Sequence record: NC_031114.1
Length of the DNA: 39,235 bases
Reading direction: 5' to 3' (one strand)
DNA from: Escherichia phage 64795_ec1
Made by a program: the position numbers and the translations under genes. Below the pieces are notes generated by a model. The model had not been told where the DNA came from, did not search any database, and worked only from the letters and a program-made list of their open reading frames with translations. Shown here one piece after another: positions 5,450 to 35,675 of the stretch. How positions within the stretch are numbered: the stretch's first letter is position 1; the number at the start of each line of letters is the position of its first letter.

Positions 5450-5520
5450 CCTTAAGGTTTAACTTTAAGACCATTAAGTGTTAATTAGAGATTAAATTAA
5501 AGAATACTAAGAGAGGACTT
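5450..5520 (+). other. AT-rich segment of the primary replication origin region (by position downstream of phi1.1A/B)
   Basis: AT-rich TTAACTTTAAGACCATTAAGTGTTAATTAGAGATTAAATTAAAGAATACTAAGAGAGG between phi1.1B and gene 1.1, as in T7. Confidence 0.5.
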
Positions 5521-19437: not shown

Positions 19438-21048
19438 ATGGCTGAGAAGCGTAAAGGTCTAGCCGAGGAAGGAGCAAAGTCGGTTTATGACCGATTGAAG
19501 AACGACCGCGCTCCTTATGAGACTCGTGCTCAAAACTGCGCTCAGTACACCATTCCGTCCCTCTTCCCTAAGGATTCCGATAACTCATCCACAGACTACA
19601 CGACTCCGTGGCAAGCTGTGGGTGCTCGCGGTCTCAATAACTTGGCCTCTAAGCTCATGCTGGCGCTCTTCCCGATGCAAACGTGGATGAAGCTGACCAT
19701 CTCTGAGTACGAGGCAAAACAGTTACTGAATGACCCCGATGGACTCGCTAAGGTCGATGAGGGTCTCTCAATGGTAGAGCGTATCATTATGAACTACATT
19801 GAGTCTAACAGTTACCGAGTGACTCTCTTTGAGGCCCTCAAGCAGTTAGTCGTAGCTGGCAACGTTATGCTATACCTACCGGAACCAGAAGGGTCAAACT
19901 ACAATCCAATGAAGCTGTACAGATTGTCTTCTTATGTGGTCCAACGAGACGCATTCGGCAACGTTCTGCAAATGGTGACGCGTGATCAGATAGCTTTCGG
20001 TGCACTCCCTGAGGACATCCGTAAGTCTGTAGAAGGTCAAGGTGGTGAGAAGAAAGCCGATGAGACCATCGACGTGTACACTCACATCTATCTGGATGAG
20101 GACTCAGTTGAATACCTCAGATACGAAGAGGTAGAGGGTATGGAAGTCCAAGGCTCCGCTGGGACTTACCCTAAAGAGGCTTGCCCATATATCCCGATTC
20201 GAATGGTTCGACTGGATGGTGAATCCTACGGTCGTTCGTACATTGAGGAATACTTGGGCGACTTACGGTCCCTTGAGAATCTCCAAGAGGCCATCGTTAA
20301 GATGTCAATGATTAGCTCTAAGGTTATCGGCTTAGTGAATCCTGCTGGTATCACCCAGCCACGCCGACTGACCAAAGCTCAGACTGGTGACTTCGTTACT
20401 GGTCGTCCAGAAGACATCTCGTTCCTCCAACTGGAGAAGCAAGCAGACTTTACTGTAGCCAAGGCTGTCAGTGACGCTATTGAGGCTCGCCTTTCGTTTG
20501 CCTTTATGTTGAACTCTGCGGTTCAACGTACAGGGGAACGTGTGACCGCCGAAGAGATTCGGTATGTGGCCTCCGAACTTGAAGATACTTTAGGTGGTGT
20601 CTACTCTATCCTTTCTCAAGAATTACAATTGCCTCTGGTACGAGTGCTCTTGAAGCAACTACAAGCCACGCAACAGATTCCTGAGTTACCTAAGGAAGCA
20701 GTAGAGCCAACCATTAGTACAGGCTTGGAAGCAATTGGTCGAGGACAAGACCTTGATAAGCTGGAGCGTTGCGTAACTGCGTGGGCTGCTCTGGCTCCTA
20801 TGCGCGATGACCCTGACATCAACCTTGCGATGATTAAGCTGCGCATTGCGAACGCTATCGGTATTGACACTTCTGGCATTCTTCTTACCGAAGAACAGAA
20901 GCAACAGAAGATGGCTCAACAGGCTATGCAAATGGGTATGGATAATGGTGCTGCTGCGCTTGGTCAAGGTATGGCTGCACAGGCTACAGCTTCACCTGAG
21001 GCTATGGCTGCTGCCGCTGATTCCGTAGGTTTACAGCCGGGCATTTAA
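19438..21048 (+). CDS. 8: portal (head-tail connector) protein (gene 8)
   Basis: 536 aa MAEKRKGLAEEGAKSVYDRLKNDRAPYETRAQNCAQYTIPSLFPKDSD…. Confidence 0.98.
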   Translation: MAEKRKGLAEEGAKSVYDRLKNDRAPYETRAQNCAQYTIPSLFPKDSDNSSTDYTTPWQAVGARGLNNLASKLMLALFPMQTWMKLTISEYEAKQLLNDPDGLAKVDEGLSMVERIIMNYIESNSYRVTLFEALKQLVVAGNVMLYLPEPEGSNYNPMKLYRLSSYVVQRDAFGNVLQMVTRDQIAFGALPEDIRKSVEGQGGEKKADETIDVYTHIYLDEDSVEYLRYEEVEGMEVQGSAGTYPKEACPYIPIRMVRLDGESYGRSYIEEYLGDLRSLENLQEAIVKMSMISSKVIGLVNPAGITQPRRLTKAQTGDFVTGRPEDISFLQLEKQADFTVAKAVSDAIEARLSFAFMLNSAVQRTGERVTAEEIRYVASELEDTLGGVYSILSQELQLPLVRVLLKQLQATQQIPELPKEAVEPTISTGLEAIGRGQDLDKLERCVTAWAALAPMRDDPDINLAMIKLRIANAIGIDTSGILLTEEQKQQKMAQQAMQMGMDNGAAALGQGMAAQATASPEAMAAAADSVGLQPGI

Positions 21049-21069
21049 TACGACTTCACTATAGGGAGA
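21046..21069 (+). promoter_or_regulatory. T7-RNAP promoter phi9, variant with one extra T (TAATACGACTTCACTATAGGGAGA)
   Basis: 24-nt match to the 23-nt consensus with an inserted T at 21055/21056; gene 8 stop TAA is its first triplet. Confidence 0.6.
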
Positions 21070-22170: not shown

Positions 22171-23205
22171 ATGGCTAACATGACTGGTGGACAGCAACTG
22201 GGTACTAACCAAGGTAAAGGCGTAAGCGGTGGTGCCGATAAACTGGCGTTGTTCTTGAAGGTATTTGGTGGTGAAGTTCTGACTGCATTCGCTCGTACCT
22301 CCGTGACCACTTCTCGCCACATGGTCCGTTCCATCTCCAGCGGTAAATCTGCTCAGTTCCCTGTTCTGGGTCGCACTCAGGCAGCGTATCTGGCTCCGGG
22401 TGAGAACCTCGACGATAAACGTAAAGACATCAAACACACCGAGAAGGTAATCACCATTGATGGTCTCCTGACGGCTGACGTTCTGATTTACGATATTGAG
22501 GACGCGATGAACCACTATGACGTTCGCTCTGAGTACACCTCTCAGTTGGGTGAATCTCTGGCGATGGCTGCTGATGGTGCGGTTCTGGCTGAGATTGCCG
22601 GTCTGTGTAACTTGGTAGGGACCTCTAACGAGAACATTGAGGGCCTAGGTGCTGCTACCGTAATTGAGACCACTCAGGCCAAGACTGCACTTACCGACCA
22701 AGTTGCTCTGGGTAAAGAGATTATTGCGGCTCTGACTAAAGCTCGTGCGGCTCTGACCAAGAACTATGTTCCGGCTGCTGACCGAGTGTTCTACTGCGAC
22801 CCTGACAGCTACTCTGCGATTCTGGCAGCACTGATGCCGAACGCTGCAAACTACGCTGCTCTGATTGACCCTGAGAAGGGTTCTATCCGCAACGTTATGG
22901 GCTTTGAGGTTGTAGAAGTTCCGCACCTCACCGCTGGTGGCGCTGGTACTGCCCGTGATGGCGTAACTGGTCAGAAGCACACCTTCCCTGCCACTAAGAG
23001 TGGTAATGACAAGGTAGCTAAGGACAACGTTATCGGCCTGTTCATGCACCGCTCTGCGGTAGGTACCGTTAAGCTGCGCGACTTGGCTCTGGAGCGCGCT
23101 CGCCGTGCTAACTTCCAAGCTGACCAGATTATCGCTAAGTACGCAATGGGTCACGGTGGTCTGCGCCCAGAAGCTGCTGGTGCAGTGGTTTTCAAGGGGG
23201 AGTAA
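22171..23205 (+). CDS. 10A: major capsid protein 10A
   Basis: 344 aa MANMTGGQQLGTNQGKGVSGGADKLALFLKVFGGEVLTAFARTSVTTSRH…. Confidence 0.98.
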   Translation: MANMTGGQQLGTNQGKGVSGGADKLALFLKVFGGEVLTAFARTSVTTSRHMVRSISSGKSAQFPVLGRTQAAYLAPGENLDDKRKDIKHTEKVITIDGLLTADVLIYDIEDAMNHYDVRSEYTSQLGESLAMAADGAVLAEIAGLCNLVGTSNENIEGLGAATVIETTQAKTALTDQVALGKEIIAALTKARAALTKNYVPAADRVFYCDPDSYSAILAALMPNAANYAALIDPEKGSIRNVMGFEVVEVPHLTAGGAGTARDGVTGQKHTFPATKSGNDKVAKDNVIGLFMHRSAVGTVKLRDLALERARRANFQADQIIAKYAMGHGGLRPEAAGAVVFKGE

Positions 23206-23342
23206 TGCTAAGGGTGGCCTCAACGGTCGCTGCTAGTCCCGAAGAGGCGAGTGTTACTTCAACAGAAGAAACCTTAACGCCAGCACAGAAGGCCGCACGC
23301 ACCCGCGCTGCTAACAAACCAGCTGCTGCCGCTGAGCAATAA
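22171..23342 (+). CDS. 10B: minor capsid protein 10B by -1 ribosomal frameshift near 23188-23194
   Basis: slippery G GTT TTC; -1 frame then reads QGGVMLRVASTVAASPEEASVTSTEETLTPAQKAARTRAANKPAAAAEQ to TAA 23340-23342. Confidence 0.7.
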
Positions 23343-29774: not shown

Positions 29775-32700
29775 ATGGATAAGTACGATAAGAACGTACC
29801 AAGTGATTATGATGGTCTGTTCCAAAAGGCGGCTGATGCCAACGGGGTCTCGTATGACCTTTTACGTAAAGTCGCTTGGACGGAATCACGCTTTGTACCT
29901 ACAGCAAAATCTAAGACTGGACCATTAGGCATGATGCAGTTCACCAAGGCAACCGCTAAGGCACTTGGTCTGCGAGTTACCGATGGTCCAGATGATGACC
30001 GACTAAACCCTGAGTTGGCTATCAATGCTGCCGCCAAGCACCTTGCAGGTCTGGTAGGGAAGTTTGATGGCGATGAACTCAAAGCTGCCCTTGCATACAA
30101 CCAAGGCGAGGGACGCTTGGGTAATCCTCAACTTGAGGCGTACTCTAAGGGAGACTTCGCGTCCATCTCTGAGGAAGGACGGAACTACATGCGTAACCTT
30201 CTGGATGTTGCTAAGTCACCTATGGCTGGACAGTTAGAAACTTTTGGAGGTATCACCCCAAAGGGTAAAGGCATTCCGGCTGACGTTGGACTAGCTGGAA
30301 TAGACCATAGTCAGAAAGTAACACAGGAACTTCCTGAGTCCACAAGTTTTGACGTTAAAGGTATCGAACAGGAGGCTCCGGCGAAACCATTCGCCAAGGA
30401 CTTTTGGGAGACCCACGGAGAAACACTTGATGAGTACAACAGTCGTTCAACCTTCTTCGGATTCAAAAATGCTGCCGAAGCTGAACTCTCCAACTCAGTC
30501 GCTGGGATGGCTTTCCGTGCTGGTCGCCTCGATAATGGTTTTGATGTGTTTAAAGACACCATTACGCCGACTCGCTGGAACTCTCACATCTGGACTCCAG
30601 AAGAGTTAGAGAAGATTCGAACTGAGGTTAAGAACCCTGCGTATATCAACGTGGTAACTGGTGGTTCTCCTGAGAATCTTGACGACCTCATTAAGCTGGC
30701 TAACGAGAACTTTGAGAATGACTCACTCGCTGCCGAAGCTGGCCTCGGTGCTAAACTGAGTGCTGGCATTATTGGCGCTGGTGTGGACCCTCTTAGTTAT
30801 GTTCCCATGGTTGGTGTAACTGGTAAGGGCTTTAAGTTAATCAATAAGGCTCTTGTGGTTGGTGCAGAAAGTGCTGCGCTGAACGTTGCATCCGAAGGTC
30901 TCCGCACATCCGTAGCTGGTGGCGATGCAGATTATGCTGGTGCTGCCTTAGGTGGCTTTGTGTTTGGCGCTGGTATGTCTGCAATCAGTGATGCTGTAGC
31001 TGCTGGTCTGAAACGTAGTAAACCAGAAGCTGAGTTCGACAATGAGTTCATTGGTCCCATGATGCGGATGGAAGCCCGTGAGACAGCGCGTAACGCCAAC
31101 TCTGCGGACCTCTCTCGGATGAACACTGAGAACATGAAGTTTGAAGGTGAATACAAAGGCGTTCCATATGAGGAACTTCCGACCGAAAAGGGTGCTGTGG
31201 TTCTCCATGACGGCTCCATACTTAGTGCGAGCAACCCAATCAACCCCAAGACTCTCAAAGAGTTCTCCGAGGTTGACCCTGAGAAAGCGGCACGAGGAAT
31301 CAAACTAGCAGGGTTCACTGAGATAGGGTTAAAGACCTTAGGCTCAGACGACGCTGATATTCGACGGGTAGCTATTGACCTAGTGCGGTCTCCTACCGGA
31401 ATGCAATCAGGTTCCTCAGGGAAGTATGGTTCAACAGCTTCGGACATTTTCGAGAAACTTCGTGGCACTGACCAGCGTACTTACAACGACTTGTATAAGG
31501 CGATGTCTGACGCGATGAAAGACCCTGAGTTCTCCACTGGCGGCGCTAAGATGTCTCGCGAAGAAGCTCGTTACACTATCGAGCGTCGAGTGTCCTTGGC
31601 TATTGAGAACCCTGAGCTACAGAAGGCTTTAACTCCTAACGAGCGAATCGTAATGGACATCGTTAAGCGACATTATGACACCAAGCGTGAACTTATGGAG
31701 AACCCTGCGGTCTTTGGTAACACGAAGGCTGTGAGTATCTTTCCGGAGAGTAGACACAAGGGAACATATGTTCCACATGTGTACGACAAGTACGCTAAGG
31801 CACTCAAAATTCAACAATATGGTGCTGAGGGCTTACAGGAAGGTATCGCTCGGTCATGGATGTGTAGCTACGATTTGAGGCCTGCGGTAAAGGCCCGTAT
31901 TGACGAAGCACTTAAAGAGATGCACGGTGTAGAGGAAGTCACACATGATATGGTGTATAAGTACGCTATGGATAAAGCATACGGTATCTCTCACTCAGAC
32001 AGGTTCACTAATAGCTCCATCATTGAGGAGAACATTGAGGGTCTTGTTGGTATTGAGAATAACTCATTCCTTGAAGCACGAAACCTCTTTGACTCCGACT
32101 TAGCAATCACCATGCCAGATGGTCAGCAATTCTCTGTGAACGATTTGAGGGACTTTAGTATGTTCCGTATCATGCCAGCGTATGACCGCCGTATCAACGG
32201 TGACATAGCCATCATGGGGTCTACCGGTAAAACCACTAAGGAACTTAAGGATGAGATTTTGGCTCTCAAAGCGAAAGCTGAGGGTGACGGTAAGAAGACT
32301 GGCGAGGTTCATGCTCTAATGGATACCGTTAAGATTCTTACTGGTCGTGCTCGACGCAATCAGGACACTGTGTGGGAAACCTCACTGCGTGCCATTAATG
32401 ACCTAGGGTTCTTCGCCAAGAACGCCTATATGGGTGCTCAGAACCTTACGGAGATTGCTGGGATGATTGCCACGGGTAACGTGCGTGCTCTTGGTCACGG
32501 TATCCCAATTCTACGTGATACACTCTACAAGTCTAAACCAGTTTCCGCTAAGGAACTTAAGGAACTCCATGCGTCTCTGTTCGGGAAGGAGGTGGACCAG
32601 TTGATTAGACCTCAACGTGCTGACATAGTGCAGCGTCTAAGGGAAGCAACTGACACAGGGCCTGTTGTGGCGAACATCGTAGGAACCTTAAAGTATTCCA

Positions 32701-33581
32701 CACAGGAACTAGCTGCTCGCTCTCCATGGACTAAGCTGCTTAATGGAACCACTAACTACCTTCTTGATGCTGCGCGTCAAGGTATGCTTGGGGACGTTAT
32801 TAGTTCTACCCTAACAGGTAAGACTACCCGCTGGGAGAAAGAAGGATTCCTTCGTGGTGCCTCCGTAACTCCTGAGCAGATGGCTGGAATCAAGGCTCTC
32901 ATCAAGGAACATATGGTACGTGGTGAGGACGGGAAGTTTACCGTTAAGGATAAGCACGCGTTCTCTATGGACCCTCGTGCTATGGACTTATGGAGACTGG
33001 CTGACAAGGTAGCTGATGAGGCGATGCTGCGTCCACACAAGGTGTCCTTACAGGATTCCCATGCGTTCGGAGCATTAGGTAAGATGGTCATGCAGTTTAA
33101 GTCTTTCACTATCAAGTCCCTTAACTCTAAGTTCCTGCGAACCTTCTACGATGGGTACAAGAACAACCGAGCGATTGACGCTGCGCTGACTGGTATCATA
33201 TCTATGGGTCTCGCTGGTGGCTACTACGCTATGGCTGCACACGTCAAAGCATATGGAATGCCTAAGGAGAAACGTAAAGAGTACTTGGAGCGAGCACTGG
33301 ACCCAACCATGATTGCCCACGCTTCGTTGTCTCGTAGTTCTCAATTGGGTGCTACTTTGGCTATGGCTGACCTAGTTGGTGGCCTGTTCGGGGTTGAGTC
33401 CTCAAAGATGGCCCGCTCTACGATTCTGCCTAAAGACACCATGAGGGAGCGTGACCCTAATAAGCCTTATACCTCGTGGGAGGTAATGGGTAATATGGGT
33501 TCCAACATTCTTGAACAGATGCCATCGGCTGGATTTGTGGCTAACGTTGGGGCTTCCCTACTTAATCTGCTGGCGTGGTGA
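29775..33581 (+). CDS. 16: internal virion protein D with N-terminal lytic transglycosylase domain (gene 16); reading frame ends early at TGA 33579-33581
   Basis: 1268 aa; …GVSYDLLRKVAWTESRFVPTAKSKTGPLGMMQFTKATAKALGL… (transglycosylase motif). Confidence 0.9.
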   Translation: MDKYDKNVPSDYDGLFQKAADANGVSYDLLRKVAWTESRFVPTAKSKTGPLGMMQFTKATAKALGLRVTDGPDDDRLNPELAINAAAKHLAGLVGKFDGDELKAALAYNQGEGRLGNPQLEAYSKGDFASISEEGRNYMRNLLDVAKSPMAGQLETFGGITPKGKGIPADVGLAGIDHSQKVTQELPESTSFDVKGIEQEAPAKPFAKDFWETHGETLDEYNSRSTFFGFKNAAEAELSNSVAGMAFRAGRLDNGFDVFKDTITPTRWNSHIWTPEELEKIRTEVKNPAYINVVTGGSPENLDDLIKLANENFENDSLAAEAGLGAKLSAGIIGAGVDPLSYVPMVGVTGKGFKLINKALVVGAESAALNVASEGLRTSVAGGDADYAGAALGGFVFGAGMSAISDAVAAGLKRSKPEAEFDNEFIGPMMRMEARETARNANSADLSRMNTENMKFEGEYKGVPYEELPTEKGAVVLHDGSILSASNPINPKTLKEFSEVDPEKAARGIKLAGFTEIGLKTLGSDDADIRRVAIDLVRSPTGMQSGSSGKYGSTASDIFEKLRGTDQRTYNDLYKAMSDAMKDPEFSTGGAKMSREEARYTIERRVSLAIENPELQKALTPNERIVMDIVKRHYDTKRELMENPAVFGNTKAVSIFPESRHKGTYVPHVYDKYAKALKIQQYGAEGLQEGIARSWMCSYDLRPAVKARIDEALKEMHGVEEVTHDMVYKYAMDKAYGISHSDRFTNSSIIEENIEGLVGIENNSFLEARNLFDSDLAITMPDGQQFSVNDLRDFSMFRIMPAYDRRINGDIAIMGSTGKTTKELKDEILALKAKAEGDGKKTGEVHALMDTVKILTGRARRNQDTVWETSLRAINDLGFFAKNAYMGAQNLTEIAGMIATGNVRALGHGIPILRDTLYKSKPVSAKELKELHASLFGKEVDQLIRPQRADIVQRLREATDTGPVVANIVGTLKYSTQELAARSPWTKLLNGTTNYLLDAARQGMLGDVISSTLTGKTTRWEKEGFLRGASVTPEQMAGIKALIKEHMVRGEDGKFTVKDKHAFSMDPRAMDLWRLADKVADEAMLRPHKVSLQDSHAFGALGKMVMQFKSFTIKSLNSKFLRTFYDGYKNNRAIDAALTGIISMGLAGGYYAMAAHVKAYGMPKEKRKEYLERALDPTMIAHASLSRSSQLGATLAMADLVGGLFGVESSKMARSTILPKDTMRERDPNKPYTSWEVMGNMGSNILEQMPSAGFVANVGASLLNLLAW

Positions 33582-33730
33582 ATGCTCCCAACAAAGCCAC
33601 TGAGCAGGACTTCATGACTGGCTTGATGAACTCTACCAAGGAGTTAGTACCTAACGACCCTCTTACTCAACAGCTTGTGTTGAAGATTTATGAGGCGAAT
33701 GGTGTTAACTTGAGGGAACGTCGGAAATAA
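33578..33730 (+). other. 16: displaced 3' segment of gene 16 (last 50 codons in the other frame)
   Basis: VNAPNKATEQDFMTGLMNSTKELVPNDPLTQQLVLKIYEANGVNLRERRK, stop TAA 33728-33730 inside phi17; 1268+50 codons equals the T7 gp16 length as I recall it. Confidence 0.6.
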
Positions 33731-33750
33731 TACGACTCACTATAGGGAGA
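33728..33750 (+). promoter_or_regulatory. T7-RNAP promoter phi17
   Basis: TAATACGACTCACTATAGGGAGA, +1 at 33745. Confidence 0.88.
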
Positions 33751-33802
33751 GGCGAAAGAATCTTCTCCCTGTAGTCTCTTAGATTTACTTTAAGGAGGTC
33801 AA

Positions 33803-34675
33803 ATGGCTAACGTAATTAAAACCGTTTTGACTTACCAGTTAGATGGCTCCACTCGTGATTTTAATATCCCGTTTGAGTATCTAGCCCGTAAGTTCGTAGT
33901 GGTAACTCTTATTGGTGTAGACCGCAAGGTCCTTACGATTAATACAGACTACCGTTTTGCTACTCGCACTACTATCTCACTAACCAAGGCTTGGGGTCCA
34001 GCGGATGGATATACTACAATAGAGCTACGTCGAGTAACCTCCACGACCGACCGCTTGGTTGACTTTACGGATGGCTCAATCCTCCGTGCGTATGACCTTA
34101 ACGTCGCTCAGATTCAAACGATGCACGTAGCGGAAGAGGCCCGTGACTTAACTGCGGATACTATCGGTGTCAATAATGATGGTAACTTGGATGCTCGTGG
34201 TCGTCGAATTGTGAACCTAGCGAACGCTGTAGATGACCGTGACGCTGTTCCGTTTGGTCAACTTAAGGCTATGAACCAGAACTCATGGCAGGCGCGTAAT
34301 GAGGCCTTACAGTTCCGTAATGAGGCTGAGACTTTCAGAAATCAAGCGGAGGGCTTTAAGACCGAGTCTGGCACTAACGCTGCTAATACGAAGCAGTGGC
34401 GTGATGAGACCAAAGGTTTCCGAGACGAAGCTGAGCAGTTTAAGAATACTGCTGGTCAATATTCTACATCCGCTGGGAACTCTGCGACCGCAGCACACCA
34501 ATCTGAGGTAAACGCTGAGAACTCCGCAACAGCCTCCGCTAACTCTGCCCAGTCAGCAGAACAGCAAGCAGACCGCGCTAAGGTGGAAGCAGACAAGTTG
34601 GGTAACTGGAATGCACTTGCAGGGGCAATTGATAGTGTTGACGGGAACAATGTCATGTTTAAAGGCGACATTTAG
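33803..34675 (+). CDS. 17: tail fibre protein (gene 17), proximal part: T7-type tail-anchor and coiled-coil shaft
   Basis: 290 aa MANVIKTVLTYQLDGSTRDFNIPFEYLARKFVVVTLIGVDRKVLTINTDYRF…; stops at TAG 34673-34675. Confidence 0.9.
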   Translation: MANVIKTVLTYQLDGSTRDFNIPFEYLARKFVVVTLIGVDRKVLTINTDYRFATRTTISLTKAWGPADGYTTIELRRVTSTTDRLVDFTDGSILRAYDLNVAQIQTMHVAEEARDLTADTIGVNNDGNLDARGRRIVNLANAVDDRDAVPFGQLKAMNQNSWQARNEALQFRNEAETFRNQAEGFKTESGTNAANTKQWRDETKGFRDEAEQFKNTAGQYSTSAGNSATAAHQSEVNAENSATASANSAQSAEQQADRAKVEADKLGNWNALAGAIDSVDGNNVMFKGDI

Positions 34676-35675
34676 AACACCTGCAAATATCGTAGGTGGT
34701 GGCTTAATCTCCAACGGTTCTGGTCATTTTGAGAAAGGCGTGGCTGTTAAGGGTGAATTAGATGTTGTAGGGGATGTTTCGGCGCATAAGGATGTGTGGG
34801 TAGATGGTGTAGTTGTAGCCAATGGTGGGATACAGCAACATTCAAATCCTAATACCCTTAATGAGGTGTGGAGGGTGTTTATTAAGGGGGTCCCACTCCA
34901 TATTGGAAACCGACAAGGTCTTCATCTTGGTTGGAACGAGACCAGTAATGGCGAGTCGTGTTTTGTTACTAACAAAGGTGCAGGTGGTGGTGGTTTTGTT
35001 TTCCGCACGGTAAACTTTGAGAACACTGCTGAGATTGGTCGCGTTACATTCACTGGTAACGGTGGAGTACGCGCCTTCGATTTACAAGCAATTAATGGTG
35101 CTCGTATTGAGGCTGGGAATAATATAGTTGGTGCGAGCATTTTCTCAGGAATGGGCGCCTGCCAGTTCAATACCGAAGGTAACTTGCTGGGAGGTCTATG
35201 GAACAGAGTTGGAGGTGACCTATACAACTACCTGTGGAACAAGAGTCACTTTGCTAAGCCACCTGCTGGGGTTCAATTGTTTACAGGCCGTGGTGGGGAC
35301 TACCTTGAGGGCCTTGTTGATACTACAGCTGTTGGGTTCCGCTGGTTCAATTCTGACAGAAGGCTTAAAGAAAACATAAAGGTTGTACGTTCCGCTGATG
35401 ATATGCTTAAGATTATCCGCTCATACATCCCGGTTTCCTATAAGTATAAGGACTCTGAGTATGTTGATAAGCGTGGCAGAACGGTAAGCGTTACCGGTAA
35501 GAACTCTCGTGCTGGTTTCATTACTCAGGATTTGATTCGAATCTGGCCAGAGGCGGTGGACGTGCTATCCGATGGTATGCAATCCCCAGACCCTAACCAA
35601 ATCATCGGTGGACTCATGCTTCTTGTCAAGAATCTTGATGAACGCGTACAGGAGTTGGAGAAAAATAACGTTTAA
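34674..35675 (+). CDS. 17: tail fibre (gene 17), distal receptor-binding part with C-terminal S74-like intramolecular chaperone, in the other frame
   Basis: RTPANIVGGGLISNGSGHFEKGVAVKGELDVVGD… then …NSDRRLKENIKVVRSADDMLKIIRSYIPVSYKYKD…IIGGLMLLVKNLDERVQELEKNNV; no independent SD, so a continuation of the proximal ORF is assumed. Confidence 0.75.
   Translation, partial: RTPANIVGGGLISNGSGHFEKGVAVKGELDVVGDVSAHKDVWVDGVVVANGGIQQHSNPNTLNEVWRVFIKGVPLHIGNRQGLHLGWNETSNGESCFVTNKGAGGGGFVFRTVNFENTAEIGRVTFTGNGGVRAFDLQAINGARIEAGNNIVGASIFSGMGACQFNTEGNLLGGLWNRVGGDLYNYLWNKSHFAKPPAGVQLFTGRGGDYLEGLVDTTAVGFRWFNSDRRLKENIKVVRSADDMLKIIRSYIPVSYKYKDSEYVDKRGRTVSVTGKNSRAGFITQDLIRIWPEAVDVLSDGMQSPDPNQIIGGLMLLVKNLDERVQELEKNNV

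Follow-up and report, generated by a model that had tools for sequence, protein, structure and literature searches.

The frame break late in gene 16 of the Escherichia phage 64795_ec1 record is very probably a one-base sequence error

The record of Escherichia phage 64795_ec1 (accession given as KU927499 in a paper) holds a T7-group podophage genome of 39,235 bp, the whole of which was analysed here and is referred to as the window. Gene 16 lies between the genes for gp15 and gp17, and its deposited product (ANM45763.1/YP_009291516.1) carries an SLT lytic transglycosylase domain (PF01464) at residues 15–127 (E 7e-31). The gene 16 region shares about 91–94% nucleotide identity with T7, HZ2R8 and N30. 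By exact-sequence look-up, the capsid protein, gp12 and a 290-residue gene 17 fragment were likewise identified as deposited 64795_ec1 proteins, and tblastn finds the other large genes (1, 4, 5, 6, 8, 9, 10, 11, 12, 13, 14, 15 and 19) to be full length. The features considered below are collected in Table 1.

Table 1. Positions of the features discussed, in coordinates of the window
Feature	Position	Strand	Remarks
Promoter phi9	21046..21069	+	TAATACGACTTCACTATAGGGAGA; 23-nt consensus plus a private T at 21055/21056
Gene 16 as deposited	29775..33581	+	1268 codons, then TGA; from the ORF list and tblastn
Missing-base site in gene 16	33566..33567	+	in relatives, T33566 and C33567 are separated by A or G
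Displaced 3′ end of gene 16	33566..33730	+	54 codons plus TAA, matching T7 gp16 residues 1265–1318
Out-of-frame codons and premature stop	33567..33581	+	CTG CTG GCG TGG (LLAW), then TGA; result of the missing base
Promoter phi17	33728..33750	+	matches the 23-nt class III consensus perfectly
Gene 17 (tail fibre), N-terminal fragment	33803..34675	+	290 codons; TAG created by the extra T
Extra T in gene 17	34671..34673	+	TTT, against TT in relatives; private +1
Displaced distal gene 17	34674..35675	+	333 codons; intact Peptidase_S74 chaperone domain

As deposited, the gene 16 reading frame ends with ...LLNLLAW followed by TGA. T7 gp16 nevertheless aligns colinearly with the window over its full length, in two adjacent frames: in tblastn, residues 1–1264 map to 29775–33566 with 94% identity, and residues 1265–1318 map to 33566–33727 in the other frame with 96% identity (E 4e-27). 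The match of the displaced frame to the T7 gp16 C-terminus is far beyond chance. This neighbouring frame is closed on its upstream side by a TAA at 33563–33565, remains open for 54 codons (33566–33727), and ends with ...NLRERRK before a TAA at 33728–33730 that is the true gene 16 stop codon and at the same time makes up bases 1–3 of phi17. The distance from the start of gene 16 to the start of gene 17 is 4028 nt in 64795_ec1 and 4029 nt in T7. A single gp16 ORF of about 1318 codons with the basic C-terminus RERRK is thus absent from the genome as deposited, and present once one A is restored, when gene 16 becomes an ORF of 3957 nt. An earlier, sequence-only reading of the window had described the stop after 1268 codons, the continuation in the other frame as far as the TAA inside phi17, the closure of that frame by the upstream TAA, and a 16-to-17 spacing one nucleotide short of that in T7, all of which were confirmed. 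Its arithmetic, in which 1268 plus 50 codons equal the length of T7 gp16, also holds after one base is restored (1318).

T7 gp16 (internal virion protein D, NP_042004.1) is represented by the structures with PDB codes 7EYB, 7K5C and 6YT5. The two proteins are alike in the position of their genes between genes 15 and 17, in the SLT domain, in colinearity, and in a stop codon that overlaps phi17. They differ in that the 64795_ec1 frame is broken after codon 1264; with the base restored, no structural difference from T7 gp16 is left.

The site of the break was aligned with T7, HZ2R8 and N30, with 13 IMG/VR contigs together with Bas102 and ESh1, with 10 ENA/Logan metagenome contigs, and with the nearest relative. 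Every alignment places one single gap between T33566 and C33567, where relatives read AAT[A/G]CTGCTGG, with A (Thr codon ACT) in the nearest ones, and this placement is unambiguous because the flanking bases differ from the missing base. Nine relatives match the 26-nt junction sequence of the window exactly, apart from an additional A, and the missing base is therefore most likely A, as judged from these alignments. With A restored the sequence becomes ...LLNTAGVVNAPNK..., as in the relatives, and the protein reads ...LLNTAGVVN.... The sequence-only reading had placed the loss of a single nucleotide within 33566–33578, which stands, the gap falling at the first position of that interval (33566/33567). 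Its more specific proposal, that TGG(G)TG had lost a G, does not, because GGCGTGGTGAAT reads alike in the nine relatives and in 64795_ec1; a repair by G would instead have given ...LLNLLAWVN....

The one-base gap was seen in the alignments to T7-group gp16 sequences in 64795_ec1 only. A base is present at the site in all 23 related contigs that span it, and across 33401–33760 the window has no private substitution relative to these 23, the gap being its one private difference. Among the 120 best gp16 homologues from a collection of 5.8 billion proteins (93–99% identity), the length is 1318 residues, with one protein of 1317 and none of 1268. The members listed for the 90% cluster that contains the deposited gp16 are likewise 1318 residues long, except for one partial sequence of 271, and an exact look-up of the 1268-residue protein returned one contig only, from 64795_ec1. 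The deleted junction 21-mer TTAATCTGCTGGCGTGGTGAA has no exact match in IMG/VR, JGI metagenomes or GTDB genomes. The 1268-codon stop thus occurs in none of the relatives, no two-frame layout of gene 16 was found in the 23 related contigs or the 120 best homologues, and on the strength of these comparisons the deletion is private to the 64795_ec1 record.

Compared with the nearest relative (ENA contig L041, 99% protein identity), repaired gene 16 shows 147 nucleotide and 17 amino acid differences, and the stretch 3′ of the break shows 12 nucleotide differences with none at the amino acid level in the last 70 residues. Because no residue has changed despite the 12 nucleotide changes, the displaced frame has not decayed, and the break is either extremely recent or not real.

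A second break of the same kind is found in gene 17, for which only the 290-residue N-terminal piece is annotated, as 'tail fiber protein'. At the break, 64795_ec1 reads GAC ATT TAG where relatives read GAC ATT AGA or CGA. Removal of one T gives a gp17 of 623 residues whose gap-free alignment with the 623-residue gp17 of a metagenomic relative shows 96% identity, and in related contigs this type of tail fibre is encoded by a single ORF of 623–624 residues. A prfB-like +1 frameshift at ATT TAG A was considered and rejected, the upstream sequence being the same in relatives that have no extra T. In addition, tRNA-Ile re-pairs poorly on UUU.

The tail-fibre region also varies between relatives. 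Close relatives with gene 16 sequences 94–99% identical (L023, 7719–9946; L030, 7740–9944; L041, 14030–16242) carry a different module, composed of a gp17 of 556–558 residues and a separate Caudo_TAP tail-fibre assembly protein, whereas 64795_ec1 has the 623-residue Peptidase_S74 type. By sequence comparison, a probable recombination breakpoint lies within gene 17, near window position 34632. Some metagenomic relatives encode enlarged gene 16 products of 1487 and 1513 residues (L024, 3546–8009; L029, 3514–8055), and in others an HNH endonuclease ORF is located just upstream of gene 16 (L028, 1054–1470; L030, 3327–3743), which suggests that, in this group of phages, mobile insertions may occur within gene 16 or beside it.

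A third private indel affects phi9, where the extra T falls within the recognition core; the five other class III promoters are perfect 23-mers. This T is missing from all 11 relatives that span the site, and the resulting 24-mer has no match among the 2.9 million viral contigs of IMG/VR. A census against 36 related loci, in which an indel was called private when it stood against all or nearly all loci, gave six more private one-base indels, at 5492, 5505, 13153, 13429, 38757 and 39191. The thresholds of this census are loose, and stricter ones miss the gene 16 site. The six are located in intergenic or ribosome-binding-site regions, in or near short base runs whose length most of them alter, and could represent either additional errors or true variation.

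Based on these observations, the frame break in gene 16 very probably reflects the erroneous deletion of one base from the deposited 64795_ec1 sequence. An A would have been lost from the record between T33566 and C33567, and the phage most likely encodes an ordinary gp16 of 1318 residues, that is, an internal virion and ejection protein with an N-terminal lytic transglycosylase domain, the stop codon of which would be the TAA that opens phi17. The extra T in gene 17 would likewise be an error, and gp17 would have 623 residues. Errors of base calling, assembly or editing would account for the indels. The phage DNA would lack them, and this explanation implies for it AATACTG in gene 16 (AATCTG as deposited), ACATTAGA in gene 17 (deposited as ACATTTAGA) and GACTCAC in phi9. 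The hallmarks of an artefact are present: an indel private to the record, a displaced frame without decay, and more private indels that hit essential or invariant elements. In this respect the record resembles other deposited phage genomes with split-gene frameshift artefacts, in which record-private indels split essential genes and the displaced parts are conserved, and the additional private indels in short base runs elsewhere in 64795_ec1 extend the likeness. It differs from them in that gene 16 loses a lone A and no homopolymer is shortened. Homopolymers are the classic context of 454, Ion Torrent and nanopore indels, and the position of the missing A outside any such run (AAT[A]CTG) counts against an error. 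A primary description of 64795_ec1 was not found in the literature by phage name or accession.

The same non-homopolymer context, less typical of platform indel errors, speaks for a genuine and very recent deletion in the sequenced DNA, for example in a defective variant or a subpopulation of the lysate, with gp16 ending after residue 1264 and a LLAW tail. The break does stand in the public record, and the complete conservation of the downstream frame is equally compatible with a very recent mutation and with an error. We consider a genuine mutation unlikely, however. In T7, gene 16 and gene 17 both encode essential virion proteins. An isolate that forms plaques cannot have most of its genomes broken at both sites, and one with the breaks as written should be unable to propagate. 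Genomes of this kind could not predominate in an isolate that propagates, and the deletion is present in no independent assembly. The same genome would also be without the whole distal tail fibre, since in a gp17 of 290 residues all of it is missing, the presumed receptor-binding domain included. For gp16, a review of ejection proteins (PMC8954989), citing Chang, Kemp and Molineux 2010, states that infectivity requires the five basic residues at the C-terminus and that close relatives conserve them, and the same source assigns residues 1119–1290 to putative membrane region II; according to these statements, the mutation would cost the basic residues needed for infectivity as well as part of the putative membrane region. 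A deletion that is real in a phage that is nonetheless viable, with gp16 either lacking its last 54 residues or receiving them through a separate peptide or unconventional recoding, is very unlikely; if true, the gp16 C-terminus, which is reported as required for T7 infectivity, would be dispensable or separable. The sequence-only reading had raised the possibility that a truncated gp16 C-terminus matters to the phage, which is unlikely, the 1268-codon stop being absent from related phages and the gene 17 frameshift and the phi9 insertion being private to the same record.

Functional two-frame arrangements are known from this phage group, and the T7 gene 10A/10B −1 frameshift resembles the gene 16 break in that a second frame prolongs the ORF of a virion protein near its 3′ end. 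In 64795_ec1 the gene 10A/10B site G GTT TTC is kept at 23189–23195, together with a 49-codon 10B extension (region 23189–23342), in which two in-frame deletions, one of 18 nt and one of 3 nt, are the only differences from T7. It could thus be argued, from the use of −1 frameshifting by T7-group phages, that gene 16 is recoded by ribosomal frameshifting or polymerase slippage within 33566–33581, or, from a GTG-initiated ORF of 51 codons at 33575..33730, that the gene is split and a separate protein of 51–54 residues is made from GTG 33575. We regard a functional layout of either kind as very unlikely. In gene 10 a slippery heptamer is present, and relatives share the two-frame layout. The break in gene 16, by contrast, occurs in one record only and is accompanied by neither a slippery site nor a stimulatory structure: of the 13 heptamers in TAATCTGCTGGCGTGGTGA (33563–33581), not one fits the pattern X XXY YYZ, and the RNA at 33567–33690 folds at −29.7 kcal/mol against a mean of −28 for shuffled sequences (z = −0.49). 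Transcriptional slippage is opposed by the absence of a long A/T run, and recoding of any type by the single-frame gene 16 in every relative compared. As for a split gene, GTG 33575 is not preceded by a strong Shine-Dalgarno sequence.

With an error in the deposited sequence as the preferred explanation, the finding is mainly a matter of database hygiene. The GenBank/RefSeq entries for a gp16 of 1268 residues and a 'tail fiber protein' of 290 residues propagate into UniRef and comparative studies, and a correction of the database entries is worthwhile. A truncation of gp16, if real, would bear on the question of which parts of the protein DNA ejection depends on, but the evidence speaks against one. 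In comparisons of host range, tail fibres and the ejectosome, the repaired ORFs, with a gp16 of 1318 residues and a gp17 of 623 residues, are preferable to the deposited ones.
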